Virus genome (UHGV): UHGV-1374573
DNA length: 45,706 nt
Reading direction: 5' to 3' (one strand)
DNA from: a virus
Below are positions 1 through 45,706 of the stretch, one piece after another. Within the stretch, counting starts at the first letter, position 1; each line of letters opens with the position of its first letter. A model generated the notes under the pieces. The model saw nothing but the letters and a program-made list of their open reading frames with translations, searched no databases and was not told the origin of the DNA. Made by a program: the position numbers and the translations under genes.

Positions 1-1011
1 ATCAGCTACAATATATTCAGGTAAATGACCGTAGGTCTCTTGAATTGAATTTAAAAATGGTATCATCGTTCTTGTATCAGTCGGATTTTGATACACATTA
101 TAAGATAAAACGAATTGAGAATTTGTCGCTATTTGTAAATTATAACCTGGCTTGAGTTGTCCATTTTTCATATGATCTTCTTTCATTCTCATAAATGTGG
201 CATCATGATCTGTTTTAGAATAACTATTTCTATCCTTTAAAATAGATTTTTGGACGTCGTATTTATGCTTTCGCCCAGAGTAATCATTAATTTGCTTTTT
301 ATATTGTTTAATTTTAGTTCTTTTGAGCCGTATTTGTTTTCTTATTTTAGTACATTTTTCATTATCGATATGTTGATTTAAATCTTCGATTTCTTTATCC
401 AAATGACTACCAATCAAATCTATTTCTTCCTTTGTTAAGTCATTATCGTGATCTTTTTTAATCTCAGGTATGATTTTATTTGTTACCAATTCATGATAGA
501 GTGCTTTAGAATCTTCATTCATCTTTGTCTCATGGTTTTGAATACTCTTTTTCCATACAAATGTATATCGATTGGCATTCGCCTCAACTTTCGTACCATC
601 AATAAAAATGGTTTGATCATCTATAAGATGTTGTTTCAAACACTGACTATGAAATTGAATAAATAATGATTCTAATAAAGCATCTACTTTTGGATTGACT
701 CTAAATCGATTAATCGTTTTATAAGAAGGCTTTTGATTTTGTGATAACCACATCATCCGGATGCTATCATTAAGTAATTTTTCTATCTTACGTCCTGAAA
801 ACACAGATTGTGTGTAGGCATATAGAATGACTTTTAACATCATTTTGGGATGGTACGAGGTTGCACCACGATGATGTCTGAATTCATCGAATTCAGTTTT
901 AGGAATTGTTTCTACAATATCATTGACATGTCGTGAAATATCATTTGTGGGGATAAGAACTGAAGTTTCCAATGGTAGAGTAAGTTGAGTCATGTTATAA
1001 TCTTTATACAT
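1..1011 (-). CDS. IS1182-family DDE transposase, N-terminal 337 codons (ATG at 1011). The ORF runs off the window start and continues in frame at 45706..45047
   Basis: The reverse-complement translation is [41 protein letters not shown]...PEYIVAD. A GAGGTG RBS lies 7 nt upstream of the ATG. The ORF is still open at window position 1, which is why it is absent from the ORF track. Confidence 0.8.
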
Positions 1012-1217
1012 AAGGCACCTCGTTAATTTAGTTTAGTGACGTTTATTAAATTATACGAAAGTGCCTTATTTTTTTAAAGTATTTCAATGTAAAATTACAT
1101 ATAAATACAAAGTATTTTGGCGAGACTCTTGAGGGAACAGGACAAGCTGAAGACTACAGGCTGAAGCTGTCCCCTAAGAAAGCGAGCCAACAATACGGAG
1201 TATTGTAAATAAAGAAG

Positions 1218-1251
1218 CCAGTAAATGAATTTGTTAAAACTCATTTACTGG
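1218..1251 (-). terminator. Perfect 11-bp stem-loop (CCAGTAAATGA/TCATTTACTGG, 12-nt loop) in the IS leader, followed on the minus strand by a T-rich tract. Likely a read-through barrier upstream of tnp
   Basis: Inverted repeat read directly from the sequence. IS elements commonly carry such terminators inside their ends. Confidence 0.4.
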
Positions 1252-1265
1252 CTATTTCTCTAGGG

Positions 1266-1281
1266 TTTATGTCCCAGACTC
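1266..1281. repeat. IS terminal inverted repeat (int-proximal end)
   Basis: 15 of 16 positions match the reverse complement of 45051-45066. Confidence 0.7.
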
Positions 1282-1319
1282 TTATTATTTTTTTACTTTT
1301 TTAAGGAGGAACACGGAAA

Positions 1320-2369
1320 ATGGCAACATTTACAGTAACAAAACGCAAAAATAAGACAAGCTCATCATGGCAATACGATGTTAAACACCCTAGTTTGAAA
1401 TCTGGCAAAAAACGTAAATCTGGATTTAAAACAAAAGCTGAGGCTACAAACGCAGCACAACAATTAATTAGAGATTTAGAAGATGGCAACAACATTGAAG
1501 ATAATAAAAAGTTCGTTGACTACTACGATGACTGGATAAAAATTAAGAACAAGAAACAGTTGTCTAGCAAACAATTCTACTGGTATGAAAGATCGATTAA
1601 ATTATTCAGTGAGTATTTCGGAGAAAATATGTTAGTTAAAAATATCACACGTAGTGAGTATCAAAAGTTTTTAAATCAATACGCACAAGGTCACACTGAT
1701 GAAACAGTAAGAAAAGTTCACGGTTGTCTTGCTAGATGTATTAGAGACGCGTTATACGATGGCTATTTGAAGAAAGACCCTACTTATAATGTAAATATCA
1801 AAGGGACTGAAAAAGCTAAAGATGAGAAATTTAAGTTTATTACGATAAAAGACTATTTAAACTTGCTAGATTATTTCAAGAAAAGAGATGAAGAAAGTTA
1901 TGTTTTGCTATATCTATTAGGCATTACTGGCGCAAGATATAGCGATGTCATCAATATGACTTACAAAGATCTAAACAAAGCGAATGGCATAATTCATTTG
2001 CCTGGAACGAAAACAAAGAATTCAAAACGTGATGTAGAAGTAAATTCAAAAGATATCATGCACATAAATTCAAAATTAGCTAAAATGCCACGTAGAATTG
2101 ATGGCAAGTTATTCTCGGTTAGTCATACATCAGTAAGTAAAGCATTCAGAAAAGCAAAAGAAGTGATAGGATTAAACGATAATAATATAACTCCCTATTC
2201 ACTCAGACATACGCACACATCTTACTTACTATCTAAAGGCATACCAATCGAGTACATAAGTAAACGTTTAGGTCACGCTACTATATCACAAACGTTAGAT
2301 ACGTATTCACATTTATTAGAAGAACATAAAAAAGAGCAAGGTCAACGTGTCAGAGAAATATTCTCTTGA
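1320..2369 (+). CDS. int: Tyrosine recombinase / phage integrase
   Basis: 349 aa. C-terminal catalytic motifs: R (YSLRHTH), H-x-x-R (GHATISQTLDTYSHLL), Y. AGGAGG RBS 8 nt upstream. Located at the lysogeny end, next to the attP-like repeats. Confidence 0.9.
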   Translation: MATFTVTKRKNKTSSSWQYDVKHPSLKSGKKRKSGFKTKAEATNAAQQLIRDLEDGNNIEDNKKFVDYYDDWIKIKNKKQLSSKQFYWYERSIKLFSEYFGENMLVKNITRSEYQKFLNQYAQGHTDETVRKVHGCLARCIRDALYDGYLKKDPTYNVNIKGTEKAKDEKFKFITIKDYLNLLDYFKKRDEESYVLLYLLGITGARYSDVINMTYKDLNKANGIIHLPGTKTKNSKRDVEVNSKDIMHINSKLAKMPRRIDGKLFSVSHTSVSKAFRKAKEVIGLNDNNITPYSLRHTHTSYLLSKGIPIEYISKRLGHATISQTLDTYSHLLEEHKKEQGQRVREIFS

Positions 2370-2386
2370 CACTTATTTGACACTTA
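2366..2386. promoter_or_regulatory. attP arm-type direct repeats: TTGACACTTA x2, 11-bp period, overlapping the int stop codon
   Basis: Direct repeat read from the sequence. It has the same TTGACAC core as the pair at 2528-2547. Confidence 0.5.
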
Positions 2387-2446
2387 CTCTCTCGAAAGCC
2401 TGTCATATCAACGGTATAGTACGGAAACGGAGGGATAAAAATAAAT

Positions 2447-2513
2447 TTCTAAATAAAACTAAATAGCCATAAGTACAGTGTTTTCAAAGATTTATTTTCT
2501 AAATAGAACTAAA
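2447..2513. promoter_or_regulatory. Second attP repeat family: TTCTAAATA(A/G)AACTAAA x2, 50 bp apart, possibly flanking the core
   Basis: 17-bp direct repeats at 2447-2463 and 2497-2513 with one mismatch. Confidence 0.4.
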
Positions 2514-2527
2514 AGATTATAACTATT

Positions 2528-2547
2528 TTGACACGTATTTGACACGT
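2528..2547. promoter_or_regulatory. attP arm-type direct repeats: TTGACACGT x2, 11-bp period
   Basis: Direct repeat. TTGACAC core is shared with 2366-2386. Confidence 0.5.
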
Positions 2548-2629
2548 GTACACAAAAAACCACGCTCATAAAGAACGCGGTTTAGAATATAGTATTAGTT
2601 TGAAATCGGGAACAAAGAATATTATACAA

Positions 2630-2660
2630 TAAAAAAGAGGGTAGCCATAGTGACTACCCT
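2630..2660 (-). terminator. Rho-independent terminator downstream of the lysis cassette
   Basis: On the minus strand: AGGGTAG-9 nt loop-CTACCCT followed by CTTTTTTATTG. It lies 29 nt after the endolysin stop. Confidence 0.7.
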
Positions 2661-2688
2661 TGTATAATGACGTGGTAATTTAATTATA

Positions 2689-4161
2689 TCAAACTGCACT
2701 AAATTTACCAAAACTATTTAAACGTTTGCCGTCTTTATCTACTTCGCCTGTTGCTATATAACGACGTTTACCGTTATTCGCAATATAAGTTATCCAACGA
2801 TAACCATTTATACAATAAGCACCGTCATAGATAATAGATGTGCCATTCGGTAATACACCTGTAATTGTTGCAGTCGTATTGTATGATGTTCTTACGTTGT
2901 TACCTTTAACAGTCGTAACTGTATATTTGCCACTCTCTTTTTTGTAAGGTACACCATTCTTATCTAACACATAGCCATTTGGTACAACTGGTTTCTTTTC
3001 ATCTTTCGGTTTAGGTTTCTTACTACTAGCGACCACACCACCGATAGGCTTACCGTGAATCGCTCCAGCTATCAACTTAGCATACTTTTTACTATTCTTC
3101 TTAATCCAATCCATATCAGCTTTGTTAGTGATAAAACCTAATTCAGTTAAACGATAATTCATGTTGATTTCTGCCGAAACATTAGCGTTTAGTAAGTCGT
3201 TTCTTGGTGTGATGTCTCTAATCTGACCTACATTATCTTTAATCACTTTTTGTATGTCTTTATCAATTCTATCTGCACTGAACGCACTAGAGATGATAAC
3301 ATGACCGCCCGACGCAGACGCACCTGCTGCGTCCAAATGGAATTCTGCTATAATATCGTATTTCTGTTTTTTAACCCAATACATACCGTAATCTGACCTA
3401 TTACCTACATTCTGACCGTAAGCAGTATCTTGATACATATCTTGCGACTGTTTAGTACCACCATATAAAGCTACTTCGTGGCCTGCTTGTCGTAAATAAC
3501 TCGCAACATGAGGTGTGATGTTTTTACGAATGAAATCGCGTTCGTTTGTACCATTTCCAACCGCTCCTGGATCACTATATCCGTGGCCTGCAACAATCAT
3601 AATTTTCTTAGGTTTAATTTTAGCTTTTGCTTTCTCATTTTTAGATACTGCGTTCTTGATGATTTTTTTTGCTTTCTTACCTGCATTGATATTACTTGGG
3701 AAGTCAAAGCGAATGAAGTACATAGGATCATCATAATAATGCCAACGTCTTGTCACTCTCTCTGGTCCCCAACCTGGAGACGCTACACCATTCGTCCAAC
3801 CTTGTCCGTTCCAATTTTGCTCTAACACTTCAAATTGTGTGAGTGTTGCTCGCGTTACTGGTGCAACGTGACCAGCACCACCGCCATAGCCACCGTTAAA
3901 CACTGCTATATCAGTTTTTCGAGGTAAGAAAGAATCATAGTTTTTAATCACTTTTGCATATTTGCTTATTACCTTTTCATTATCAAATGGTATGTTTTTC
4001 GCATATAAACCTGTTAATCTAGCACCTGTGACTGCATTAAAAAATGCATTTGCGTAATCGTAACACTGAAAACCTGCATAATTGTCAAAGTTATATTGTT
4101 TACCTTCTGAATTATCAAGCCATTTTTCCGCTTGAGATTTAGTCATTAACATATGTGCCAC
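2689..4161 (-). CDS. Endolysin with CHAP + Amidase_3 (MurNAc-L-Ala amidase) + SH3b cell-wall-binding domains
   Basis: 490 aa. N-terminal CHAP Cys/His (FQCYDYANA ... GHVAPV), Amidase_3-like centre (MIVAGHGYSDPGAVG) and SH3_5-like C-terminus. Sits after the holin at the end of the late operon. Confidence 0.9.
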   Translation of the reverse strand: MAHMLMTKSQAEKWLDNSEGKQYNFDNYAGFQCYDYANAFFNAVTGARLTGLYAKNIPFDNEKVISKYAKVIKNYDSFLPRKTDIAVFNGGYGGGAGHVAPVTRATLTQFEVLEQNWNGQGWTNGVASPGWGPERVTRRWHYYDDPMYFIRFDFPSNINAGKKAKKIIKNAVSKNEKAKAKIKPKKIMIVAGHGYSDPGAVGNGTNERDFIRKNITPHVASYLRQAGHEVALYGGTKQSQDMYQDTAYGQNVGNRSDYGMYWVKKQKYDIIAEFHLDAAGASASGGHVIISSAFSADRIDKDIQKVIKDNVGQIRDITPRNDLLNANVSAEINMNYRLTELGFITNKADMDWIKKNSKKYAKLIAGAIHGKPIGGVVASSKKPKPKDEKKPVVPNGYVLDKNGVPYKKESGKYTVTTVKGNNVRTSYNTTATITGVLPNGTSIIYDGAYCINGYRWITYIANNGKRRYIATGEVDKDGKRLNSFGKFSAV

Positions 4162-4458: not shown

Positions 4459-4497
4459 TTATTTATGCTCCTTTTAGTTAAATTAAAAAGCCAACCG

Positions 4498-5546: not shown

Positions 5547-5598
5547 TAGAAACCACCCTTCAATTATTAAAGGCTACCCACCGTCAGTGAGTAGCCTT

Positions 5599-7401: not shown

Positions 7402-8384
7402 CGTTTGTATTTAACTTAACGCCTTTCCCCGCATTAATTTCTTAATACGCTTGTGTAACGTTAAATTGCTCTATAAAAAGAGCCTCATGCTTTCACATGA
7501 GACTAGACTATATCTTAATATTCATTTTTAGCTTTTTTATAAGCTAAGTGTGCTTCTTCTGCAGTTTCATAAACACCTAAGTATATAAATTTCTTGTTTT
7601 TGTAAAGCTGCGCTTGATATTTGTTTAGATGTGGTTTGTAAGTTACTCCTGTATATCCTGTCTTATTATGATATTTTCGTCGATTGTTTGCATTTTCTTC
7701 ATGACTAACCCATCTGCAATTTGATGGTTTATAATCGTCATCGTTGTTAATTCTGTCTAATTCAGCACCTTCGAATGGTACATCCCCCATATCTTTGTAG
7801 AATTGCATAAAGTCATCTTTCCACTCATCACAAACCTTTATACCTCTACCGCCATATGCGCTGTAAAAATCATAGTTAGAGTTGTAACATCGTTGCTTCA
7901 TACCTTTCCATTTATTATAAATTAAAGTTCCAGTCATACCATGTTTTTTAGAATGACTAACTTTATTCAAACAACCACAACTTTTAGAATAACCATTTTT
8001 CACTTCGGTACCAATCATTATTTTTTCATTACCGCATCTCGTACAGTAACATTTATATAGTTTCTTTTTATGTTTATTTCTGCCATAAAACTCTAGAACT
8101 TTAAGATAATTAAACTGCATTCCTACAATGTCCATTTGACCGCTCCTTATCAATCGTCAAATACATTGTATCACACATGAATATTTAATGCACTGCCTAT
8201 CAATTGATAGTACATAGTCGTTGAAGCTTCCTCTACTATTACCATAGAGGCTTGCCTGCTGATTGCCCAATCCTTAATATTTTTTAACTTTCACGCTTAC
8301 CGTTACCAGTTACGTTGTAGTTATTAAGGTTCTAAGGGTGTCCCAGCAATTCACATTATTTTTTTACATGGAACCCATTAATTA
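7402..8384 (-). mobile_element. Group I intron (983 nt) interrupting the virion-hydrolase gene and carrying an HNH homing endonuclease ORF
   Basis: Exon 1 ends ...GGAGCU. Intron nt 10-15 (GGUUCC) can pair with it as a 6-bp P1 helix, with U.G at the splice site. The intron ends in G (..ACAAACG|CAATGTTGG). Joining the exons restores ...VDVDGYYGA-QCWDLPNY..., a contiguous CHAP N-terminus. The HEG lies within the intron at 7515-8153. Confidence 0.75.
7515..8153 (-). CDS. Intron-encoded HNH homing endonuclease (Zn-finger-like CxxC/CxC N-terminus, HNH_3 motif, AP2-like DNA-binding C-terminus)
   Basis: 212 aa. ELDRINNDDDYKPSNCRWVSHEENANN is an HNH_3 motif. YTGVTYKPHLNKYQAQLYKNKKFIYLGVYETAEEAHLAYKKA resembles an AP2 domain. 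It is a paralog of 22297-22980. Confidence 0.75.
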   Translation of the reverse strand: MIRSGQMDIVGMQFNYLKVLEFYGRNKHKKKLYKCYCTRCGNEKIMIGTEVKNGYSKSCGCLNKVSHSKKHGMTGTLIYNKWKGMKQRCYNSNYDFYSAYGGRGIKVCDEWKDDFMQFYKDMGDVPFEGAELDRINNDDDYKPSNCRWVSHEENANNRRKYHNKTGYTGVTYKPHLNKYQAQLYKNKKFIYLGVYETAEEAHLAYKKAKNEY

Positions 8385-8492
8385 AGCTCCATAATAACCA
8401 TCTACATCAACTCTTCTGCCAATCATCCTTTTTGCCCATGCTGCAACTTCCGAAGCAGTAGGTTTTCTTTTTTTAGGGCTAGGTAATCCCAT
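8385..8492 (-). CDS. Tail-associated peptidoglycan hydrolase, exon 1 (36 codons, MGLPSPKKRKPTASEVAAWAKRMIGRRVDVDGYYGA)
   Basis: ATG at 8492 with a GAGGTGG RBS. The ORF ends in TAA right after the 5' splice site. Confidence 0.75.
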
Positions 8493-8542
8493 ATATCCAC
8501 CTCATTTCTGGCATAATAAAAAGTCGATACATAAGTACCGAC

Positions 8543-8989
8543 TTAGTTTCCAAATAGCAAAGGGGCAATTACTTTACTTAGTGTTTCTAATAGTGCGAAT
8601 GCACCTACAAGTATAGCGCCTAAAGTTTTATTAGATAATTTCCTTTCTTCCAATATAAATTGCTTATCTTCAATCTTGCTATCTAATGTTTTTCTGATAT
8701 CCCTTACTTCTTCGTTAACTTCTTCAAAACGCCTATTTGTATTAGAATTTGATTGCCTCAACTCTTTCACAAGTCCTTCTATGCTATTCGCCATTCTATC
8801 CGTATTTTTTTCAGTGTTAGCAGATGTACCTTTTAATTCTGTAATAACTTGTATCGTTTCCGTATATCTATCGTCATGTTTTTCATCAACTTTGTATAAC
8901 TTTTCAGTCGTTTTATCTATATTAGTTTCGGCTTTATCCATACGTTTTTCTAAGCTAGTAATTCTTTGTTCTTCTATTGTTTTTTGCAT
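8543..8989 (-). CDS. XhlA-like protein: coiled coil plus a C-terminal transmembrane anchor
   Basis: 148 aa, charged and coiled-coil over most of its length. C-terminal TM segment TLGAILVGAFALLETLSKVIAPLLFG. Confidence 0.5.
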   Translation of the reverse strand: MQKTIEEQRITSLEKRMDKAETNIDKTTEKLYKVDEKHDDRYTETIQVITELKGTSANTEKNTDRMANSIEGLVKELRQSNSNTNRRFEEVNEEVRDIRKTLDSKIEDKQFILEERKLSNKTLGAILVGAFALLETLSKVIAPLLFGN

Positions 8990-9417
8990 AAAATCAAAAC
9001 TCCAATTGCAACCAAGATGATTTGTATGATACCAACACTCAAATTAATGTAATAGGTCGTGAACATCTCTGCACCACTTACTGACAATAAACCGAAAAGT
9101 ATATGGATGAAACCACTTAAACTATTACCTAAAACGATGAATATAGCATATGCTTTACCATCTAAGAACATCGCTGCAATAAGAATGAATGAACCTATTA
9201 ACATAAACCAACCCATAGTCTGAATGTCAAAATAAAGACTTATTTTGGTATACAAAGGAGATATTTTTTCTAGTTCATCTACCGTTTTATCAATCCACTC
9301 TAAGCTTCTTATTCCACCTGTAACAGCTAACAATAAAAGTAAAAGGTTGGACATTAAGTCTGATGTGTTTATTTTCTTCAAGGTTAATACACCTACTTCA
9401 CTTAAAATAAAAACCAC
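8974..9417 (-). CDS. Multi-pass membrane protein, holin-like. The real start is probably the internal Met in MSNLLLLLLAVTGG
   Basis: 147-aa ORF with three or four predicted TM helices. Confidence 0.5.
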   Translation of the reverse strand: MVFILSEVGVLTLKKINTSDLMSNLLLLLLAVTGGIRSLEWIDKTVDELEKISPLYTKISLYFDIQTMGWFMLIGSFILIAAMFLDGKAYAIFIVLGNSLSGFIHILFGLLSVSGAEMFTTYYINLSVGIIQIILVAIGVLILCKKQ

Positions 9418-9420
9418 AAG

Positions 9421-9561: not shown

Positions 9562-9562
9562 A

Positions 9563-16942: not shown

Positions 16943-19900
16943 TTAAAATAATCCGAAACTTGCGTCTTTTGAGTTGGAATCTTCAATGTATGATTTAATA
17001 GCTGGTATATCTGACTCGTTGCGAACAGTCACATTAACGATAGGTTTATTGTTCTCTTGCATGCTATGGCGCACGTCTTTACTCATATGCGCGTTCACAT
17101 CGCTATTTAATCCACCTGTTAAGTCTGATGTTAAATCAGTGTTTAAATCAGGGCTAAATGCGTTAGTTACATCTTTCGCTAAACGACGACTGGCATTAAT
17201 AGCACTATTGCTTTGTTCCATAATACCAATACCTAAACCTTGAGAAATGTATCCACCTATGCCTCTGAATACACGTGAAGGTGAGTGAATACCTAGTACA
17301 TTTTTAGCTGCACTAACTGCTTTTTTAGCAATGTTTGCGGCAGCATTTATAACTCTACTTGCGCCATTCGCAATACCTCGTGCAATACCTGAAGCAATAT
17401 GCAATCCTGCAGATACCATTTTTCCGAAGAAACTTCTGACTTTGGAAACAGCTTTACCCATACCAGAAGCCACTTGTGATACAACTCTAACAAAACCACT
17501 AACCACGCCTTGAACAAATCTACTCATCGCAGAAATGATACTTGAAACCCAACGAGCACCACCAGAAATGATGCGACTTAATGCTTGCATCATTTTTTGA
17601 GCAACAGTTGAAACTACACGTGAAAACCAACTTGATACTGTATTCCATATTCTAGTAACTGCACCTGAAATCGCAGACCAAATTTGGTTCCAACTTGTAA
17701 TATTAGTACCAAGTATTCTGTTCAAAACATTGAATATGAAGTTAGAAATTTGGCCCCAAATTGACAATATGGTATTCCAAATCGTAGTCATTACATTAGA
17801 AATCGTAGTTTGTAAAGTTTGCCAAGCGCCAGAAAAATCTCCGGTAAGGAGCTGTATTAATGCAGTAAACAAACCGAAAATCAATTGCGTAGCAGCTTGT
17901 AGTATTCCACCTATCGCAGTGAATACTACTGAAATCACAGTCCAAAGAGATTGGAAAGCAGTTACTAAACCATTGATAAGGCTGATGAATAAGAAGCCGA
18001 GAACTTGGTTTGCAACTTGTCCTAACATTTGTAAGATAGGCATAATTGGTTGGAGCGTTTGTTCGATAGACGCTCTGAACTGATTAAACCAGTTAATCAC
18101 TGTTTTTACAGCGTTCATTATCGTATCTTTAATCGTGTTCCAAGCTTCAACGCAAGTTTTTCTGAAATTCTCATTTGTTTTCCATAACCAAACAATAATA
18201 CCTATCAAAGCAACGATAACGCCTATGATAGCCAATACAGGCCATGAAATCGCACCTATAGCTACACCTAATGCTTCGAACGCTCCACTTAACATAGGTA
18301 AGATGCGCATAATTGTACTAATAGGGCTCATAAGAAGTCTAAAAGCAATTTTGACTAGGTTTAATGCACTTCTAAGTATTTGAGTGTTTCTAGCAAAAGT
18401 TAACATTTTACCGATAGCTTGAATTAAAGTTACACCAAACACGTTAGATAACATGGTACTTACTGCAATGATTGGTGCTAGTAAAGCCCACAACATACCA
18501 CCAAGTATCATACCTATACCAACCATTCGAGCTATAGCAGGGTGTGTTTCGAACAACTTAGCGATGAAACCAGCTAATGCTGTTACTACTTTTAATATCA
18601 CACTTGCTATTGGTGCCATTGCAGTACCGAAAGCAACCAATACTCTTACAATATTACCGATTAGATCCATAATGACTGGACCATTCTCTTGTACATATTG
18701 AACAAACTTTTTAAACCCTTCAGATTTACCAACTTGTTCAGACCATTCTCTAAACTTAGCAGTCATTTTAACTAACCAATCAAAGATATTAGAACTGTTT
18801 TGAGCAAATGCTTTCATCAAGTTACCAATACCCATGAATACATTGCCGAATATTTGACCTATTTTAGGTAAATTAGTTTTAGTGTATTCAATAAATGATT
18901 TAATAGCGTTCTGACCTGCTACACTGTTAGCCCAGTTTTGGAACTTTTTACCTAGATTATCTAAGCCTTTAGCAGTCCATAAGAACAATGGACCTAACTG
19001 TGTGAACACATTGATAAGTCCGTCACCAAAGCGTCCTGCAGCACTTAATAATGTGTTAAACGTCTTAACGCCTGTTGTATTCATCATATTAAAGAACTTG
19101 CTAGCAGTTTGACTGTTTTGAGCCCATTTTAAGACACTCTGTGATGCTTGTTCCATTCCTTTAGAGATACCTGCCAAGAATGGTTTCATACGTCCTAAAG
19201 CTACGTTAACTGTATCTAAAGCATTAGATAGCGTGTTGAATATCTGTGCTTGATTTTGCTTGATGATGCCTTCCCAAGTTGACTTAACTTGTTCTAAAGA
19301 TGCTTGATATCTTCTTGTTTGTGCAGTGGCTTGTAATGTTCCGTCGTTCAACATTTTAATTGCACTTACTGCCATAGCACCAAATGCAAACGCACCACTT
19401 GCAGCAATACCAAATGCACCTGCTACACCTAATGCACCACCAGCAACTACACCTAATGCGTTAGCTACTGCCATAATGGCGGGTACTAAACCAGCTATAA
19501 TAGGGATAAGACCTTGAAAGCTTGCGATTAGCAAACCTTTTATTTGTTGTCCAAATACAGTACCGAATGTTCTAATCTTAGTTGCTAAACGGTCCATTTT
19601 GTCGCCGTACTCATCTAAAGACTGACCTAAAGCTCTAGTTAATACTTGAGCTCTTGTCATTCCTCTTGTATCAAAGTTAACCTTTACTGTTTTGTCATGT
19701 AAGGTTGCCAACATAGCTTTAGCACCTAATACTGAACGTTTTAAGGGGTTATTGTTCCCTTTGATATCTACTTCTTTATCTCTTAATTGCTGTAATTTCT
19801 CTTTAACTACTGCAATTGCTCGTTTGATAGGGTTGTTGTTACCGTCTATTTCAACGGTGTGTTCACGCCAACGTTGAGCCATTGCTTTTGCAGTGTTTAA

Positions 19901-21946: not shown

Positions 21947-22094
21947 TTATGAAAAATACTTATTGAAAAACGCTCTACCTTCATCGATTGCAGGTTCCCA
22001 AAAAGGCTGTGCATGTTGCCCTTTAGTTGTGTGCCAATGTCCGTCTGCGTCTTTGTAACGCCACGGGATATTCTTTGCACGACTACCACCTGGA
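21947..22094 (-). CDS. HK97-gp10-family head-tail joining protein, exon 2 (...PGGSRAKNIPWRYKDADGHWHTTKGQHAQPFWEPAIDEGRAFFNKYFS)
   Basis: Open frame downstream of the second HEG. It encodes the conserved QPFxxPA C-terminal motif of the gp10 family and has no start codon of its own. The 3' splice site is inferred to within about 10 nt. Confidence 0.6.
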
Positions 22095-23109
22095 CCGACT
22101 GCGTATCATCTTGTTATCGTAAAGGCTTTTTATCCTTTACTTCTTACAGTCACCTGTAAGTTCGGCGTACATTTTCAACCAATAAAAAAGACAACCATTA
22201 TTGGTTGTCGGACACTCTTGGGAAGATTATATTTATTCACTTCCTACGCTCTACAGTGCTCAATAGCCTTTCGCAATCTATTAAGTTACCTCGGTGTTAT
22301 CTTTTCCAGAATTGTCTTTGTCCTAAAGGTCTAACAACAGCGTAACCTTTATCACCACGAGCAATCCTTGCATATATTGTGTTAACTGATATTTTGTATA
22401 TTTTTTCTAATTCTTGCGGCGAGTACTTAATACCATCTAGGAATACCCATTTATTGCTAGTTCTGTTTTTAGCTTGTTCATTCCTTGTTATCCAAGTACA
22501 ATTTGAAGGTTCGTAGTTACCGTTAATATCTTTTCTTTCAATAGTTAAGCGTTCATTGTAACCATTATTATATGCCCAGTCATAGAAATTTTTATAACTA
22601 TTTTTCCATTCTTCACAGATAGTTATTCCTCTAGCACCATAATTTTTGTATCTATCGGAATTTGGTTTATAGCAACGTTTCTTCATATTTTCCCATATAT
22701 AATACAGTCTAGAATCTGTATCACCATGAGTTTTTTTAGCCTTGCTTGTCGCTATCTTTTGTAAGCATCCACAACTTTTGGAATAACCTGTTGTTATAGA
22801 TTTTGCAGATTTAACTGCAGTATTTCCACAATCACACTCTACTAACCAATACAGGTATCTATCTCCTTTAGGTGGATTGTGAATCCTTACTGGTTCTATG
22901 ACTTTTAACATATTGAATTTTTTGCCTGTCAAGTCTCTAAAATTACCTTCAAAAACTTCGCCTTTAGAATTGGTTAGCATAACATCACTCCTTATGGATA
23001 TTATACCAAACCTTCATCGTATATACCAGTCGATATTTTACATATAAGACTTTCACCGATTTTGCCCGATTTTTAACTTACCATTACTGATAAGTGGGAC
23101 ATACACACT
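22095..23109 (-). mobile_element. Second group I intron (~1015 nt) interrupting the HK97-gp10-like gene and carrying an HNH homing endonuclease ORF
   Basis: Exon 1 ends ...GGGGU. Intron nt 10-14 (GUCCC) form P1 with U.G at the splice site, the same spacing as in intron 1. The exon-1 ORF runs on into VVCMSHLSVMVS* instead of the conserved C-terminus, which lies beyond the HEG. The proposed intron end is ...GCAGUCGG. Confidence 0.65.
22297..22980 (-). CDS. Intron-encoded HNH homing endonuclease (paralog of 7515-8153)
   Basis: 227 aa. Shares the FNMLKVIE / YSKSCGCL / RCY blocks with HEG 1. HNH_3 motif: IERKDINGNYEPSNCTWITRNEQAKN. Confidence 0.75.
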   Translation of the reverse strand: MLTNSKGEVFEGNFRDLTGKKFNMLKVIEPVRIHNPPKGDRYLYWLVECDCGNTAVKSAKSITTGYSKSCGCLQKIATSKAKKTHGDTDSRLYYIWENMKKRCYKPNSDRYKNYGARGITICEEWKNSYKNFYDWAYNNGYNERLTIERKDINGNYEPSNCTWITRNEQAKNRTSNKWVFLDGIKYSPQELEKIYKISVNTIYARIARGDKGYAVVRPLGQRQFWKR

Positions 23110-23363
23110 ACCCCTGTACCGTAGTTGACGTACACTGCATACTCACTACCAATATTAATAACGCCTGTTAATCCGCCCTTCTTAAAGTCCATAGAAACAC
23201 TTTCTCTAAGATAACCGGTATCAACAGGCATATTACTAACTATTGAATTGTGAATAATTGTTGTTGTCTTGGCTATACCTTTTTTAGCCCATCTAATCGT
23301 TTCTTTTTCGAACTCCTCAAGTTCCTTAACTAAGTCCCAATTACCATATTTAACCTTAGCCAA
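23110..23363 (-). CDS. HK97-gp10-family head-tail joining protein, exon 1 (...VDTGYLRESV...YVNYGTG)
   Basis: The N-terminal 84 residues match the gp10 family (VDTGxLRxS). The listed ORF 23073-23363 includes 12 intron-encoded codons. Confidence 0.65.
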
Positions 23364-32304: not shown

Positions 32305-32319
32305 TTACCAAGCACCTCT

Positions 32320-33582: not shown

Positions 33583-33584
33583 TC

Positions 33585-33941: not shown

Positions 33942-34114
33942 TCCCTGTTCTTTTTAATATCGTTTTCACTAACTTTCATCGTCACTCTACTTCCTGCTAC
34001 CTTAACCACAAAGCCTTTAACACCTAGCTGTCGTAATTCACGCTGTATCTCTGTAGGTGTCTTGCCTTGTGTGTTGTATTTGTATCGTTGAGATACCGTG
34101 TCACTTAGCAGCAT
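33929..34114 (-). CDS. Hypothetical small protein
   Basis: 61-aa ORF. Confidence 0.35.
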   Translation of the reverse strand: MLLSDTVSQRYKYNTQGKTPTEIQRELRQLGVKGFVVKVAGSRVTMKVSENDIKKNRECLR

Positions 34115-34715
34115 TTATTTTGTCCTTAACTTCTTTTTGTTTGTGTAATAATTTAACAAAGTTGATTCCTGCTTTAGTCAGGTCGCGATCAGTCGACGTT
34201 AAATTAAGTTTGTTAATGCGCACTAATTCTTTACGACTTACCAATGCTATATTTTCTTCGCTACAGTCTGACCTGTTTTGATTCAAATGTATTAAACAAT
34301 ATCCTTTGGGCACAGGTCCGTGCTTTTGTTCCCATAAATAATGTGTGTATTGTTTCCAGCATTCGTTTTTTGAACCTCGTTTTTTGATTTTTATAAACTT
34401 ATAACCGTCAGTAGTGATTTTTATCGTTCCTAAAGGAAATGTGTTATCGGGCTTTTGTCCTTTCTTAAATTGAGTTTCAGCGCTTCTACCTCTGGAAGGA
34501 AAGCTTTTACCTTTGTTCCAAGAAGGCACACCTTTTTTAAACTTACAATCAACCCCACTTCTTATCCTTTTTCTCGAACAAAACCCTTTCATTTTATCTG
34601 TAGTAACATCAGTGCCAAACTCCTTATTAAACATTTCTGTCATTTCTTTCTTAGTTTTACCTTTGATGTTATTACGAATATATTTTTCATGCTCATCAGT
34701 CCATACATGTCTCAT
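34101..34715 (-). CDS. Free-standing HNH endonuclease
   Basis: 204 aa. HNH_3 motif (GYCLIHLNQNRSDCSEENIALVSRKEL). Basic, Zn-finger-like N-terminus. Confidence 0.7.
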   Translation of the reverse strand: MRHVWTDEHEKYIRNNIKGKTKKEMTEMFNKEFGTDVTTDKMKGFCSRKRIRSGVDCKFKKGVPSWNKGKSFPSRGRSAETQFKKGQKPDNTFPLGTIKITTDGYKFIKIKKRGSKNECWKQYTHYLWEQKHGPVPKGYCLIHLNQNRSDCSEENIALVSRKELVRINKLNLTSTDRDLTKAGINFVKLLHKQKEVKDKINAAK

Positions 34716-34720
34716 GGCTA

Positions 34721-36724: not shown

Positions 36725-36733
36725 AGTTCCACC

Positions 36734-40229: not shown

Positions 40230-40242
40230 CTAATCAGTCCAA

Positions 40243-41342: not shown

Positions 41343-41553
41343 ATTTAGTTGTTTCAGTTACCGTCTTTTTAATTGCTATGTGTTTTGTCATGTCAATAAC
41401 AGTTTTATCTAAACCGTCAAAATCTTTAGCATCTCCACTACTTGTTGAATATTTGATTGTAGGAAAGTTCGCACTAGGTTTATTAGTGATATACAAGTCA
41501 AAAGGAGCGTCTTTCAGTTTAATTAGATATGTCACTGTTTCTTTCAATCCCAA
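41320..41553 (-). CDS. Hypothetical protein
   Basis: 77-aa ORF. Confidence 0.4.
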   Translation of the reverse strand: MGLKETVTYLIKLKDAPFDLYITNKPSANFPTIKYSTSSGDAKDFDGLDKTVIDMTKHIAIKKTVTETTKFEEVEYD

Positions 41554-41794
41554 TCACTCTTTTACGCAATATATCTATTGTTCTATCCATGACTTTGATT
41601 GTTTCGTTTTGTGTTTCGCATGATTCTATAGCTTTTCTGAAATCTTTTCTAAGTTCAAAATATCTATCGCACATATCTTCGTAACGTTTATTTAAATAAT
41701 CGTAATCGCTTTGCAAGAAATCTAAATCTGTTTGGCTCTTGATTAGTTGAGAGTATTCTTCTCTAGTCATCTTGACTGTGATTAACTCTTGCAT
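41519..41794 (-). CDS. Hypothetical protein
   Basis: 91-aa ORF. Confidence 0.45.
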   Translation of the reverse strand: MQELITVKMTREEYSQLIKSQTDLDFLQSDYDYLNKRYEDMCDRYFELRKDFRKAIESCETQNETIKVMDRTIDILRKRVIGIERNSDISN

Positions 41795-41848
41795 TTTCTC
41801 TCCTCCACTTGTATATTTAAGTTGTATATTTTAGTTAGTGTTTGACTG

Positions 41849-42025
41849 TTACTTGTTGGCGCAAGTTTCAGTCTTTTTTGTTATCTCAAGCCACTTCTCC
41901 CAGAAGAAACTGCTGAAAATAAGGGTTAACATTGAAAATGCTATTACCGTAAAGAAACCACCTCCTAAAAGTAATGTGATAATCATTGCGATAAACATCG
42001 TCATGTAGCTTAATAGATATTTCAT
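41849..42025 (-). CDS. Small membrane protein (58 aa, two TM segments). Not in the ORF track
   Basis: rc translation: MKYLLSYMTMFIAMIITLLLGGGFFTVIAFSMLTLIFSSFFWEKWLEITKKTETCANK. AGGAGAGG RBS upstream. Confidence 0.4.
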   Translation of the reverse strand: MKYLLSYMTMFIAMIITLLLGGGFFTVIAFSMLTLIFSSFFWEKWLEITKKTETCANK

Positions 42026-42090
42026 TTATCATCCTCTCCTTTCATTTCTAAAAATTTTTCGATATATCCTCTTTCTTCGGTAAACCTCCT

Positions 42091-42309
42091 CTAAAGTGCC
42101 GTTTCTGGCACCATTAAATTTTGTTCTATAAAGTCAATTGCCGGTCTAATCTTGATGTAGCGTTTATGATTCTTGCCAAATCTGTACATACATTTCTCTT
42201 GGAACTCTTTATTGCTATAAACGTGCTTTTCTAAATCGTTTTTAGAAATTCCACTTATTTTCACAAACTCGATAGCGTCCGCAAATCCAATGTATTCCAT
42301 TGCTATCAC
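42091..42309 (-). CDS. Hypothetical protein
   Basis: 72-aa ORF. Confidence 0.45.
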   Translation of the reverse strand: MIAMEYIGFADAIEFVKISGISKNDLEKHVYSNKEFQEKCMYRFGKNHKRYIKIRPAIDFIEQNLMVPETAL

Positions 42310-42312
42310 TCC

Positions 42313-43029
42313 TTATACTTCGTTTTCAAAGTCCATTTCTAATTGTTTGATGACATACATTGTTGATTGAGATGGAAACCAATTTGTGATCATATTCATT
42401 ACGTCATCGAAATGTTTTTGTTTTAATTGTGTTCTTGTTTTAATACCAGCCATCGTATTTACGTTACTGTTAATATCTCTATATAAAGGTTTGTTAACTT
42501 CTTTATTATTAGGTAGTCCGTGAATTTGTCTGATATAAGCAACGCGTTGATGAACTGTTTTTGTTATCAATCCGTATTCTCCTGCATCTAGCTTTTGATT
42601 TTCTTTGATATCAATAACATCTGCTTTCACTGTTGCAATTTCTTCTTTAGTTTGTTCCGTTGCTTCAAACATCAGTTTTAATGCTTGCATTGGATCATTA
42701 GGTATTTGATAAGTTCCAGTTTTTCTTAATGTAGGTAAAACTTCTGATGTTACCCAGCGTTTGAAACGTTTAGCTGATTCTAATTTTGATGAAAATATTA
42801 AGCTGTATAATCCTGATTCGTTGATAATAGTTTGACTTTGTTTACCACCAAGGGTGTCGAGTTTCACGACGTCCTTATCTTCACCGTCAACGTGTCTATA
42901 TAATGCGTCTCTCGTGTTTGAGTAGCCCAAGATTTCCGCTACATCTTTACCGACGAAAAATGGTTCCTCATTTACTGTTAACGTCCTTACTGGTAATTCT
43001 TCAAAATTGAAAATTTGTAAATCTTGCAT
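42313..43029 (-). CDS. Phage antirepressor (Bro-N domain plus KilA-C/ORF6C-like C-terminal domain). Start re-called to the Met at 43029
   Basis: The conserved Bro-N block MQDLQIFNFEELPVRTLTVNEEPFFVGKDVAEILGY begins at the ATG at 43029, which has an AAAGGAGGAA RBS. The longer ORF in the track (to 43155) overlaps cro. Confidence 0.7.
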   Translation of the reverse strand: MQDLQIFNFEELPVRTLTVNEEPFFVGKDVAEILGYSNTRDALYRHVDGEDKDVVKLDTLGGKQSQTIINESGLYSLIFSSKLESAKRFKRWVTSEVLPTLRKTGTYQIPNDPMQALKLMFEATEQTKEEIATVKADVIDIKENQKLDAGEYGLITKTVHQRVAYIRQIHGLPNNKEVNKPLYRDINSNVNTMAGIKTRTQLKQKHFDDVMNMITNWFPSQSTMYVIKQLEMDFENEV

Positions 43030-43042
43030 TTGAATTCCTCCT

Positions 43043-43258
43043 TTAATTTGTTTGTCGTTCTTTTTCTTTTTCAAAAAGATATTCAATGTCATACTCTGGA
43101 AAATATTCATTTTTAATAAGTAATGCCTCTCCAAATTTAAAATCAGAAACACCATTTATCTTATCTGCTACCGTTTGGTATCTGACTTCTAATAAGTCTG
43201 CTAAATCAACCAGAGATACTTTTTTCTCTTTTCTAATATCGTTGAAATTCTTCAACAT
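43043..43258 (-). CDS. cro: Cro-like HTH_XRE regulator (71 aa). Start re-called to 43258
   Basis: MLKNFNDIRKEKKVSLVDLADLLEVRYQTVADKING... has an XRE helix-turn-helix. AGGAGGGG RBS 6 nt upstream. The 129-aa ORF in the track is an artefactual N-terminal extension running through the operator region. Confidence 0.7.
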   Translation of the reverse strand: MLKNFNDIRKEKKVSLVDLADLLEVRYQTVADKINGVSDFKFGEALLIKNEYFPEYDIEYLFEKEKERQTN

Positions 43259-43272
43259 AGTACCCCTCCTAA

Positions 43273-43286
43273 TACGAATTTTCGTA
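43273..43286. promoter_or_regulatory. Operator 1: palindrome TACGAATTTTCGTA
   Basis: Perfect 6+2+6 inverted repeat in the cro-cI intergenic region. Confidence 0.6.
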
Positions 43287-43336
43287 TTCCAAATTATAAT
43301 TTTTAGCAACCTTTCCGATTGCTTAACTAAAGTGTA

Positions 43337-43350
43337 TACGAATTTTCGTA
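43337..43350. promoter_or_regulatory. Operator 2: TACGAATTTTCGTA, identical to operator 1 and 64 bp away
   Basis: Identical 14-mer palindrome. Confidence 0.6.
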
Positions 43351-43393
43351 CTGAGTCAACACTAAAATTCGCATTTTTTATTTTTATTTTTAC

Positions 43394-43422
43394 TTGATAT
43401 ACGATTTTTCGCATGGTATTAT
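43394..43422 (+). promoter_or_regulatory. Sigma-A-type promoter reading toward cI (-35 TTGATA, 17-nt spacer, -10 TATTAT)
   Basis: Hexamers read from the sequence. Followed by a GAGGTAA RBS and the cI ATG at 43455. Confidence 0.5.
43400..43413. promoter_or_regulatory. Operator 3 (degenerate): TACGATTTTTCGCA, inside the spacer of the cI promoter
   Basis: 10 of 12 half-site positions match. Centre-to-centre spacing from operator 2 is 63 bp. Confidence 0.45.
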
Positions 43423-43454
43423 ATAGGTACAAATTAGAAATGAGGTAAACGAAA

Positions 43455-44066
43455 ATGACTAAAGAAAAAGATTTAAAACGACTTATGGAATTGAAATCTG
43501 GGAGTATAAAAGCTTTTTCAAAAGAAATTGGTTTAGCTTATACAACTGTTAGATCTATTTTAGAAAGAGGAGTATTTAATGCTAAGGTAGAAAATGTCAT
43601 CAAAATTTGTAAAGGGTTAAATATTAAACCAGAGGAAATTATGGATATCGAGCAACCTCAACTAGAAACCCTACCAGTCAAAAAGATTCCAGTTGTTTCA
43701 AAAATATCTGCAGGCTTACCTATCTATAGTGAAGAAAATTTAGTTGATTACATATACTTCGCTACTAAAAATCTTAATTCTGACAAAGAAGAATTTGGTT
43801 TGAGAGTGTCTGGCGATAGCATGGATAAAATTTTCCAAGAAAACGATGTAGTTGTAGTCGAAAAAGATTCTATAGTAGAAAATGGTCAGTTGGGCGTCGT
43901 TATGGTTAATGGTTATAACGCTACTGTTAAACGAGTTAGATATAACAAGAATCAAATTATCTTAATTCCAGAATCAAACAACCCAGAACATTTACCTCAA
44001 GTTTACGGAGAAGATGACGAAGTTAAAATAATTGGTAGAGTTGTAGCAAGTCAAAAACTGTTTTAA
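43455..44066 (+). CDS. cI: CI-like repressor (HTH_XRE plus S24 LexA-type peptidase domain)
   Basis: 203 aa. N-terminal HTH. C-terminal GDSM (catalytic Ser) and ...VKRV... (catalytic Lys). Divergent from cro across the operators. Confidence 0.85.
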   Translation: MTKEKDLKRLMELKSGSIKAFSKEIGLAYTTVRSILERGVFNAKVENVIKICKGLNIKPEEIMDIEQPQLETLPVKKIPVVSKISAGLPIYSEENLVDYIYFATKNLNSDKEEFGLRVSGDSMDKIFQENDVVVVEKDSIVENGQLGVVMVNGYNATVKRVRYNKNQIILIPESNNPEHLPQVYGEDDEVKIIGRVVASQKLF

Positions 44067-44121
44067 TAAGCGTCCTTTGTGGCGCTTTAATATAAATATT
44101 TATTCAGAGGAGAAATGTAAA

Positions 44122-45045
44122 ATGAAAAAAGTCTTATTTATTTTATTATCTTGTTTCTTAGTTTTAGCGGCATGTAGCAACAACAATAACGATTCAAAAA
44201 AGTCGACGTCCGTTGATGAAAACAAAGTACAATTCACTAATGATACTTTAGTCCTTGATCAAGCTGTTTTAAAAATAAAAGATACATTTTTAGTTAATGA
44301 TAAGGATTCGGATAATGGCAAGAAACTATTAGCTTTTAAATACGAAGTTAAAAGTAAAGACGGGGACGAACAAATCACACCAATGAATGTTTGGATATCG
44401 TCGATGGAGACTACACAAGATAGTGAAAATACTGAAAGTAAACTTGAAGTTGGTCCAACGCCTAATACTGGTAAATTCGAAGAATGGGACAAACACAACA
44501 ATGATGTAATTAAGAAAGGTAAAACTGCTAAAGGTATTATTACTTATGAATTAGAAAATGATAAGCAAGTGACACTTAAAGCTACTAAAGGCACAGAGGG
44601 TAAAAAACTGGGTACCAAGAAAATAAATATTAGTAAACTAAAGACCGTAGATTATTCTGCAGCAGATGATATTACAAACGATTCTGCTAGTAGTTCAAAA
44701 GAAGGCAATAAAGATGTTGCGAATAACGAATCAGAAAGCACATCTAAAAATGATAATGGCAAATCACAAGACAATAATGGTAATAATGAACGTACGCAAG
44801 GTAAGCAAGTGCAAACAGCACAAAGTAATAATCAGCAATCCGAACAACAAGACCCAAACTCTCCTAGTTACCAAGAATATTTAAATGCTAAAAAACTTAC
44901 AGAAAACATTCAAAATAATCCGGATAAATTTCAACATATAGGTGGTGGGCCTGGTATGGCATTATCTAGTCCTAACCAATCGTATGATAGTTTCAAACAA
45001 GACGTAACTAAAGCAAGAAATGAGTCACAAGCATTACAACAATAA
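44122..45045 (+). CDS. Prophage lipoprotein (lipobox LAAC|S, Ig-like/DUF4352-like domain, N/S/Q-rich low-complexity C-terminus). Start re-called to 44122
   Basis: MKKVLFILLSCFLVLAACSNN is a signal peptide with a lipobox. GAGGAG RBS. The track's start at 44077 adds a non-signal-peptide extension. Co-oriented with cI, between cI and int. Confidence 0.65.
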   Translation: MKKVLFILLSCFLVLAACSNNNNDSKKSTSVDENKVQFTNDTLVLDQAVLKIKDTFLVNDKDSDNGKKLLAFKYEVKSKDGDEQITPMNVWISSMETTQDSENTESKLEVGPTPNTGKFEEWDKHNNDVIKKGKTAKGIITYELENDKQVTLKATKGTEGKKLGTKKINISKLKTVDYSAADDITNDSASSSKEGNKDVANNESESTSKNDNGKSQDNNGNNERTQGKQVQTAQSNNQQSEQQDPNSPSYQEYLNAKKLTENIQNNPDKFQHIGGGPGMALSSPNQSYDSFKQDVTKARNESQALQQ

Positions 45046-45046
45046 T

Positions 45047-45706
45047 TTATGAGTCCGGGACATAAAGTTCTTGGATAAGTGAAAAAAAGACAATTTCTAT
45101 TGAAATAATATAGAAATTGTCTTTTTTATAAATTTTTTGATTATTTTCAGCTCGTTGAGCTACTACTTTTCTTATATTAAGTGCCATTAATACAAAACCA
45201 AGTTCTCTTTTGACTTTATTGAGTCCTCGGACAGACATCCGAGTGAAACCCAAAATAGCCTTCATAAATCCAAAAACAGGTTCCACATCAATTTTTCTTT
45301 GACTGTAGATATTTTTTGTTTCTGGTTCTGAAAGCTTTTTGTTAATTTGGGATTTAAAATATTCCCAGTTATAATTCTTCATTATTTTTTTGTTTGTTTT
45401 TGAATTGAAGTTCATACATTGATTTTTCAGAGGACATTCTGAACAATCATCACATTCATATAATTTGAAGTCTCGCTTATAACCATACTTATCATGACGA
45501 TAGGCATATCTTTTAAAACCTAGCCGTTTATTATTCGGACAAATGAATTCGTCATTAATTTCGTCATAGTTCCAATTTTGAGTATTAAAGATGTCACTTT
45601 TATATTTTTTAGTTTTATCTTTTATAAACATTCCATATGTTATGAGTGGCGTTCGATTAAAGTCATCTATAATTGCCTTATAATTTGATTCACTACCATA
45701 ACCTGC
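45047..45706 (-). CDS. IS1182-family DDE transposase, C-terminal 219 codons. The 5' part of this gene is at window positions 1011..1
   Basis: rc translation from 45706: AGYGSESNYKAIIDDFNRTPLITYGMFIKDK ... EPVFGFMKAILGFTRMSVRGLNKVKRELGFVLMALNIRKVVAQR ... LYVPDS*. It is in frame with the ORF ending at position 1. Confidence 0.8.
   Translation of the reverse strand, partial: AGYGSESNYKAIIDDFNRTPLITYGMFIKDKTKKYKSDIFNTQNWNYDEINDEFICPNNKRLGFKRYAYRHDKYGYKRDFKLYECDDCSECPLKNQCMNFNSKTNKKIMKNYNWEYFKSQINKKLSEPETKNIYSQRKIDVEPVFGFMKAILGFTRMSVRGLNKVKRELGFVLMALNIRKVVAQRAENNQKIYKKDNFYIISIEIVFFSLIQELYVPDS
45047..45706 (-). mobile_element. IS1182-family insertion sequence, part 2 (3' third of tnp plus a terminal IR at 45051-45066). 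The whole element is about 1.94 kb and wraps across the window ends
   Basis: IR GAGTCCGGGACATAAA overlaps the tnp stop. It pairs with the IR at 1266-1281. Confidence 0.7.

Follow-up and report, generated by a model that had tools for sequence, protein, structure and literature searches.

An IS1272-type insertion at the terminator hairpin upstream of int in a Rockefellervirus-like Staphylococcus epidermidis phage genome

The UHGV virus genome UHGV-1374573, a sequence of 45,706 nucleotides (nt) that is called the window here, starts and ends within a transposase gene of an insertion sequence (IS), one part of the gene lying at either end. This raises the question whether the two parts belong to one IS copy in a circular phage genome that was cut open inside the IS, or whether the circle was closed during assembly through sequence that several IS copies share. 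A previous reading made from the sequence alone (the sequence-only reading) had taken the clean join of the two ends as a sign of a circular, or circularly assembled, molecule and had estimated that a random window through two separate copies would join this cleanly only about one time in 2000. Our analysis indicates that the window probably represents a temperate phage of Staphylococcus epidermidis in its unintegrated form, which carries one IS1272-type insertion, was assembled as a cycle and was then opened inside the IS.

The transposase gene and its element across the window ends

On the minus strand, an ATG at position 1011 opens a reading frame (ORF) that is still unclosed at base 1, where the protein reads ...LPEYIVAD, and a second ORF is already open at position 45706, begins with AGYGSESNYK... 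and stops with TAA at 45047–45049. Across 45706|1 the frame is unbroken and yields a single ORF of 556 amino acids (aa), of which the N-terminal 337 codons (M1–D337, the last codon at the window edge) occupy positions 1–1011 (-) and the C-terminal 219 codons (A338–S556), together with the stop codon, positions 45047–45706 (-). The NCBIfam model NF033551 (IS1182 family transposase) matched the joined protein in one stretch with 447 bits, against a cutoff of 270 (protein 5–520 to model 2–487 of 488), and the Pfam architecture is DUF772 + DDE_Tnp_1 + DDE_Tnp_1_6. In an alignment with six homologs (52–96% identity), the junction D337|A338 falls within an invariant block without any insertion or deletion, and D138, D337 and E479 are invariant; D337 would be the second aspartate of the DDE triad. 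The joined DNA gave one high-scoring segment pair through the junction with the IS copies of the phages phiPV83 and phiPVL108 (81.6% identity over 1,956 nt), the nearest gap being more than 500 nt away from the junction, and four independent contigs contain the 32-mer across the junction without a mismatch. Thus, both the in-phase join into a protein of about 556 aa and the rebuilding of the canonical DDE block, as proposed in the sequence-only reading, hold. A prophage splitting a transposase gene was considered as well, but the N-terminal half follows the C-terminal one on the minus strand; since this order points to circular permutation and not to a split gene, the idea was rejected.

The joined element has a length of 1,937 base pairs (bp). 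Its left part (IS 1–656; window 45051–45706, -) contains the left inverted repeat (IRL), a sub-terminal hairpin and the 3′ part of the transposase gene tnp, and its right part (IS 657–1937; window 1–1281, -) contains the 5′ part of tnp, a 270-bp leader and the right inverted repeat (IRR). The 16-bp IRL (GAGTCCGGGACATAAA, 45051–45066, +) and the IRR (GAGTCTGGGACATAAA, 1266–1281, -) match at 15 of 16 positions, so that the predicted pair of terminal inverted repeats is indeed present. They are the sole two matches of this repeat within the window, and the ends of the element are identical in four other contigs and in plasmid copies.

A DDE transposase of the IS1182 type and short inverted repeats around an element of roughly 1.3–2 kb confirm the assignment to the IS1182 family, which could be narrowed further to the IS1272 type. 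In a comparison with plasmids, 102 records cover at least 80% of the element, and the 25 best-listed staphylococcal copies align without gaps over 1,937/1,937 bp at 95.8% identity. The plasmid copies at this level come from S. epidermidis, S. haemolyticus and S. aureus. The transposase shares 96% aa identity with protein clusters of 1,710 and 1,260 members, and likewise 96%, over 73% of the query, with a protein named 'IS1272 transposase'. Judged by this likeness to the plasmid copies and the named protein, which served as proxies for the reference IS1272 of S. haemolyticus Y176, the element is of the IS1272 type. Further features in common with IS1272 of S. haemolyticus and other species are the length of about 1.94 kb, the single DDE transposase and the 16-bp inverted repeats, which match at 15 of 16 positions in S. 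haemolyticus IS1272, too. In contrast, the S. aureus 'IS1272'/ISSau3 copies investigated by Wan et al. 2017 are only about 81% identical to the IS of the window. Elements of the same family inside temperate staphylococcal siphophages are also present in the S. aureus Panton–Valentine leukocidin (PVL) phages phiPV83, phiPVL108 and PVL-Sa2GN1, where they are annotated as IS1272-like or ISSau3. However, these phages belong to Peeveelvirus, their IS copies are 81–84% identical to that of the window at the nt level, and they sit at other sites, in the head-tail gene region or between the endolysin gene and lukS-PV. Moreover, the phiPV83 copy is annotated with a 3-bp repeat, unlike the IS studied here.

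Within the IS, the tnp ORF is not closed by a stop codon; it extends across the sub-terminal hairpin and IRL to a stop in phage DNA, 2 bp beyond the element. The two closest database proteins (P0001 and P0002) have different tails directly beyond ...VPDS, as would be the case for copies that each read into their own flank. Wan et al. 2017 (PMC5678879), who cite Furi et al. 2016 for TnSha1/TnSha2, mention in their discussion that the IS1272 copy of TnSha1 has a tnp without stop codon, and the IS of the window shares this property. The hairpin in question (45083–45127) has an 18-bp stem with runs of A and T on its flanks, folds at -19.0 and -18.1 kcal/mol (z -6.3 and -7.0) and, about 35 bp inward of IRL, resembles a bidirectional terminator; if transcription ends there, the transposase mRNA (3′ part at 45047–45130, -) would have no stop codon. 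At the other end, upstream of tnp, a second sub-terminal hairpin with a T-rich tail (1216–1253, -) is terminator-like and would block transcription coming into the IS from the int side.

Further copies were encountered outside staphylococcal plasmids. Two contigs of 1.9–2.1 kb, L011 (CAXORL010000031.1, 'Moraxella osloensis') and L012 (NZ_NGUZ01000044.1, 'Corynebacterium kefirresidentii'), consist nearly entirely of the staphylococcal IS at 95% identity, with flanks of only tens of bases. Their assemblies are from unrelated skin bacteria, and staphylococcal contamination is more likely than transfer. The IMG/VR viral contig L014 (IMGVR_UViG_2693429546_000002) contains a type 1 IS1272 (the variant is defined below) at 7758–9341, which ends at IS position 1584 and lacks the 5′ end of tnp; its first 656 bp are 100% identical to window 45051–45706.

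The insertion site and the phage genome around it

Both junctions between IS and phage map to one point of the phage genome. To the left lies the intact gene of a DUF5067 lipoprotein-like protein (44122–45045, +), the stop of which is 5 bp before IRL, and to the right the tyrosine integrase gene int (1320–2369, +), which starts 38 bp past the end of the IS; both proteins are 100% identical to those of the S. epidermidis phage vB_SepS_BE21 (BE21). The same site without IS was seen in 17 relatives (7 phage genomes and 10 prophage loci), and in all 17 a short hairpin rich in G+C, with a T-tract behind it, separates the DUF5067 gene from int. The closest of these empty sites read TTTAT-GGGTACCTAGTACCC-TTATTATTTTT-RBS-int (RBS, ribosome-binding site) or, with the T-tract spelled out, TTTAT-GGGTACCTAGTACCC-TTATTATTTTTTT-RBS-ATG, and the others show a hairpin of variant sequence at this position. 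In the window the sequence is TTTAT-(IS)-TTATTATTTTT, i.e., TTTAT-(GAGTCC...GACTC)-TTATTATTTTTTT, with flanks identical to the empty site base for base. The 15-bp hairpin GGGTACCTAGTACCC (6-bp stems) is gone, and the IS fills exactly its place, flush. What remains of the phage terminator is the T-tract TTATTATTTTTTT at 1282–1294 (+). The BE21 hairpin scored as terminator-like (-9.6 kcal/mol with context).

The IS is flanked by TTAT on both sides, and this pair was considered as a target-site duplication. It was rejected, because TTAT already brackets the hairpin on both sides in all IS-free relatives (e.g., L001 4147–4170). The stem of the hairpin varies among the IS-free phages (GGGTAC.., GGGTAGGC.., GGGTAGTCC..) and the flanks are constant. 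Hence, the comparison with IS-free relatives, which the sequence-only reading had suggested for defining any target-site duplication, revealed none; a 15-bp hairpin was replaced instead. This corresponds to the behavior of IS1272 described by Wan et al. 2017 (PLoS One, PMC5678879), who reported that it replaces inverted-repeat targets without target-site duplication ("IR-replacing", "cut-paste-and-cut"), drawing on three new insertions, of which one had hit a PVL prophage, and on 19 pairs from databases, the targets of which measured 21–85 bp, and discussed its tendency to insert immediately downstream of genes (PMC5678879). A hairpin target directly downstream of a gene, its flush removal and the lack of a duplication are shared with these cases, and the two hallmarks of IR-replacing insertion, a stem-loop target deleted flush and no target duplication, are both seen against the 17 empty sites. 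In contrast, the target in the window, with only 15 bp, is smaller than those tabulated there. In our reading, the IS1272-type element entered by this stem-loop (inverted-repeat) replacing route, in which the 15-bp terminator hairpin separating the DUF5067 gene from int was removed flush and the 1,937-bp element substituted for it, without target duplication.

The remaining 43,769 bp (1282–45050) constitute the phage genome body, the modules of which are collinear with BE21 (Rockefellervirus) as a circular permutation. BE21 aligns with 70% of the window at 71–99% identity, mostly 84–98%, and 43 of its proteins have full-length or near full-length homologs in the same order. Modules for packaging, head, tail, lysis, lysogeny and replication are all present, including the small and large terminase subunits, portal, scaffold, major head, head-tail, major tail and tail proteins, tail lysin, holin and endolysin (CHAP + Amidase_3 + SH3_5; 2689–4161, -), as well as integrase, a CI/LexA-like repressor (helix-turn-helix + Peptidase_S24; 43455–44066, +; 100% identical to BE21), anti-repressor, SSB, replisome organiser and DnaB helicase. 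A single neck gene is split by a 1-kb insert, and plaque-forming relatives have the same insert. The best overall relatives are BE01, PG-2021_90, BE21 and PG-2021_91, of which BE01 covers 79% at 94% identity, only over window 20100–45050. By convention of the International Committee on Taxonomy of Viruses, membership in a genus requires at least about 70% nt identity over the full genome length to a member, and for Rockefellervirus the values of BE01 and BE21 are borderline. The window is read as the complete genome of a temperate S. epidermidis siphophage of the pac type, which is Rockefellervirus-like and, as a mosaic relative of BE01, BE21 and PG-2021_90/91, a new member of a known phage group. 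With a full module set on a body of 43.77 kb, the earlier description as a complete temperate siphovirus of about 43.8 kb with one IS1182-family insertion is supported.

These relatives, together with phiIPLA5 and CNPx, share the gene order with the window, 84–100% identity over 70–79% of the length and the core of the phage attachment site (attP); BE21 in particular has identical CI, DUF5067 and Int proteins. They differ in that none contains the IS and all have kept the terminator hairpin upstream of int, in that replication and lysis modules are swapped relative to the window, which is the usual mosaicism, and in that the window is 1.2–5.8 kb longer. The genomes of the Rockefellervirus relatives are of the pac type and circularly permuted, as documented for phiIPLA5 and phiIPLA7 (PMC3505474). 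Virion DNA of such phages naturally yields a circle on assembly, and with headful packaging an additional 1.9 kb can be accommodated at the cost of terminal redundancy. The GenBank record of BE21 (OQ355700.1, L003) appears to have 77 bp repeated at both ends (1–77 and 43487–43563), which lie in the tape-measure region and correspond to window 18797–18873. This repeat looks like an untrimmed k = 77 assembly overlap and not like a biological terminal repeat.

Searching for the attachment site, we found the 18-bp attP core GTACGGAAACGGAGGGAT at 2419–2436, 49 bp past the int stop codon. The same 18 bp are annotated as the att core of phage IME1323_01 and form the 3′ end of tRNA-Ser(GCT) where the prophage joins the chromosome. 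Eight chromosomal prophages of S. epidermidis with an identical DUF5067 gene continue beyond the core with the remainder of tRNA-Ser(GCT), tRNA-Asn and comK. In the window, as in BE21 and virion-derived genomes, the lysis end of the phage comes next, and the order int–attP–endolysin is uninterrupted. This contiguity of int and endolysin shows the attP configuration, i.e., judged by its gene order the genome is in the unintegrated form of an excised or virion genome. An ordinary integrated prophage with chromosomal flanks was rejected as attP is intact. A phage-plasmid, or the phage-plasmid-like state mentioned in the sequence-only reading, was not supported either: the ORFs scanned in the replication region encode a replisome organiser, DnaB helicase, ERF, SSB and HNHc, all phage-type, and no Par or Rep families were matched in the ORFs scanned, which did not include every small one. 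On a skin metagenome scaffold (ENA ERZ28570981 scaffold_11), two related prophage copies lie 43.7 kb apart (L019, 121283–134206; L020, 165008–177931), L020 with an attP-type int–endolysin junction and L019 with the tRNA-Ser/comK junction; this pair is a tandem double lysogen. In the 244-kb contig L023 (VPXX01000001.1), too, int is followed by the endolysin gene inside the contig.

A mosaic element and the position of the cut

Two variants of the element can be distinguished, "type 1", the common staphylococcal IS1272 variant (L011–L014 and plasmid copies), and "type 2", found for example on the S. epidermidis plasmid pCSF41498_2. Compared with type 1, the IS of the window is identical over IS 1–716, about 8% different from 717 to ~1720 and identical again from 1803 to its end. 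At 170 discriminating sites, it follows type 1 all through IS 5–642, type 2 in IS 717–1721 except for 5 isolated sites, and type 1 once more in IS 1803–1937. All 67 discriminating sites of the left part (45051–45706) are thus type 1, and so is window 1147–1281. The type-2 block (window 61–1065) is 99.4% identical to pCSF41498_2, which differs from the window at 67 sites in IS 5–642, at none in 643–922 and at only 6 between 643 and 1800. This block had no match in viral contigs and was found on plasmids at the said 99.4%. Such a mosaic of the two known variants was not found among the other copies compared.

The first switch lies inside IS 643–716, 74 bp that are identical in both variants and contain the junction IS 656|657. 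In the window, this stretch is divided into 45693–45706 and 1–60; the first discriminating base is position 61, exactly 60 nt downstream of position 1. The second shared stretch comprises 81 bp (IS 1722–1802). If the 45.7-kb circle were opened at random, the cut would fall in the IS in 4% and in the 74-bp stretch in about 0.2% of cases. From this we infer that one or more additional copies of IS1272 were present in the source sample and that the window represents an assembly-graph cycle starting at an edge boundary, with k-1 = 60. The cycle would have been opened inside the IS where this copy stops matching the common variant, leaving two transposase halves at the two ends. With a cut at a variant boundary in a shared repeat, the seamless join arises from the assembler whatever the true topology, and because the cut is not random, the one-in-2000 argument does not apply, even though its arithmetic (about 1/1937 for random cuts) is correct. 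The proposal of a circular or circularly assembled molecule is supported by the sequence being written as a circle, by the attP form and by the single IS site, but the clean join is no independent proof of a circle.

What, then, speaks for the reading that we consider the most parsimonious, one insertion into a phage genome that is circular or circularly permuted? Both IS/phage junctions lie at one phage site, the two IS ends touching the phage belong to type 1, a complete phage body is present in attP form, and the pac-type relatives have circularly permuted virion DNA. A true mosaic copy in a sample with pure type-1 copies would have its path broken after the 716 bp shared on the left and passed over the 216 bp shared on the right. 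The two halves would then be one physical IS copy, and the molecule itself would likely be circular or circularly permuted, as virion or replicative DNA of a headful-packaging phage. Several observations weigh against this answer. The IS is a type 1/type 2/type 1 mosaic whose first switch interval, 74 bp long, holds the window junction; the circle is closed within a segment that other IS copies have as well, so that the join gives no independent evidence of circularity. The mosaic was not matched among about 140 plasmid-borne copies (best full-length 95.8%), and the exact 556-aa transposase, its 550-aa alternative start and the N-terminal half have no record in a collection of 15 billion proteins; an exact look-up of the C-terminal partial product on contigs gave no record either. 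The combination of phage and IS lacks an independent sighting, as k-mers of the left and right IS/phage junctions were absent from viral, genome and metagenome contig collections. Finally, with 45.7 kb the sequence is 1.2 kb above the largest close relative seen (44,493 bp).

Some of these observations would be explained if two IS copies were involved. A phage carrying the IS could have integrated into a chromosome or plasmid by homologous recombination with a resident IS1272 of the other variant, resulting in a phage body flanked by two direct hybrid IS copies, from which the assembler cycled falsely through the shared IS sequence. The halves at the two ends are different variants with the switch in the very stretch that holds the junction, the cut falls into repeat sequence, which makes up 4% of the total, and lies exactly 60 nt ahead of the first discriminating base, an intact attP is also expected if integration ran through the IS instead of att, and both variants are common on plasmids of S. 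epidermidis and S. haemolyticus. We nevertheless regard this scenario as unlikely. It requires an additional rare event, recombination in short identical stretches of IS copies that are 8–10% diverged, and an assembler passing the 81-bp shared stretch (IS 1722–1802) should pass the 74-bp one, too. The asymmetry is better accounted for by one mosaic IS that shares 716 bp on one side and 216 bp on the other with type-1 copies, and the IS ends bordering the phage, both of type 1, come together at a single phage site.

Alternatively, the circle of phage and IS may be right and the mosaic an error, a plain type-1 element into which the type-2 block (61–1065) was threaded from a co-resident plasmid copy. 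The absence of the mosaic from the roughly 140 plasmid copies and from the protein collection, the location of both switch points in stretches identical between the variants and the type-1 nature of both IS ends are consistent with such a chimeric consensus. However, only 216 bp separate the type-2 block from the int flank, a distance that ordinary reads or read pairs would resolve, and the 5 isolated type-1 sites within the block look like a natural gene-conversion patchwork and not like a clean switch in a graph, making this possibility quite improbable. Even further down ranks the idea that the window is one unit out of a chromosomal tandem prophage array, a double lysogen with an attP-type junction between copies that each carry the IS. 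Such arrangements do have a precedent in the related copies 43.7 kb apart on one metagenome scaffold (L019/L020) and in L023 with its order of int and endolysin, but the window is exactly one period without attL, attR or host DNA, assembly branches would be expected at the 18-bp att core, where the contig is unbroken, and the cut at the IS variant boundary would be left unexplained. We consider this extremely unlikely and return to the single insertion for its possible effects.

Possible effects on int, other mobile ORFs and implications

As the element brings its own strong sub-terminal hairpin, 35 bp inside IRL, to the place of the phage terminator, termination downstream of the DUF5067 gene would probably be preserved. 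On the other side, 1.9 kb now separate int from everything upstream, and a consensus promoter scan found no sigma-70-like site into int, neither from the IS end nor in the empty site. We infer that int expression is altered by the insertion. A full-model match to Rfam RF02577 (S. aureus tsr24 small RNA) is present at 999–1224 (+; 112 bits, gathering score 50, E 3e-24). It is located in the IS leader on the strand opposite to tnp, covers the start codon and leader of this gene in antisense and reads outward to IRR and int, and TGTTATAAT, an extended -10-like motif read by eye from the sequence, lies just upstream of it. This match suggests that tsr24 may be an antisense RNA borne by IS1272/ISSau3, and the tsr24-like RNA may regulate tnp or feed transcription into int. 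It is conceivable, though very doubtful, that the IS cut int off from the cI–DUF5067 unit and that the phage, without normal integrase expression, persists as a repressed circular episome or as an IS-mediated cointegrate. If true, a non-integrating episome would explain an attP-form genome in a sample with other IS1272 copies, and the outward tsr24-like transcript might be the sole remaining source of int transcription.

In addition to the IS, the phage carries at least three mobile ORFs of another kind. The tail-completion/Neck1 gene (HK97 gp10-like; 21950–23240, -) is split after ...NYGTG by an insert of about 1 kb (22106–23112), the ORF of which (22297–22980) encodes 227 aa without a Pfam match and resembles an AP2-domain ORF at 7515–8153. 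The same insert exists in PG-2021_90 (100%) and BE20; BE28 and PG-2021_93 have a different insert with an HNH ORF at the same spot, and CNPx, CNPH82 and BE21 are without insert. This looks like a mobile intron or homing-endonuclease polymorphism; a comparison of the split gene with Rfam (E ≤ 1), aimed at group I introns, returned nothing relevant. Two endonuclease-like ORFs are free-standing, the one with the AP2 domain (7515–8153, -) between tail genes and one with an HNH_3 domain (34101–34715, -) in the early region, and BE21 lacks both at those places.

The element, its family, its mode of insertion and its presence on staphylococcal phages are all known already, and in this respect the finding is an ordinary one that joins known kinds of phage and IS. 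New are this insertion itself, the phage group hosting it and the small target. For scans of assembled genomes, it illustrates that a perfect join of the ends inside a repeat alone does not make a contig circular, and that the position of the cut relative to repeat variants is worth checking. For the element, the window and its IS-free relatives provide a clean natural before/after pair for the stem-loop-replacing insertion of IS1272, with a phage terminator as the target that is smaller than any tabulated so far. IS1272 thus also reaches the Rockefellervirus-like phages of S. epidermidis, which transduce plasmids and islands among skin staphylococci.

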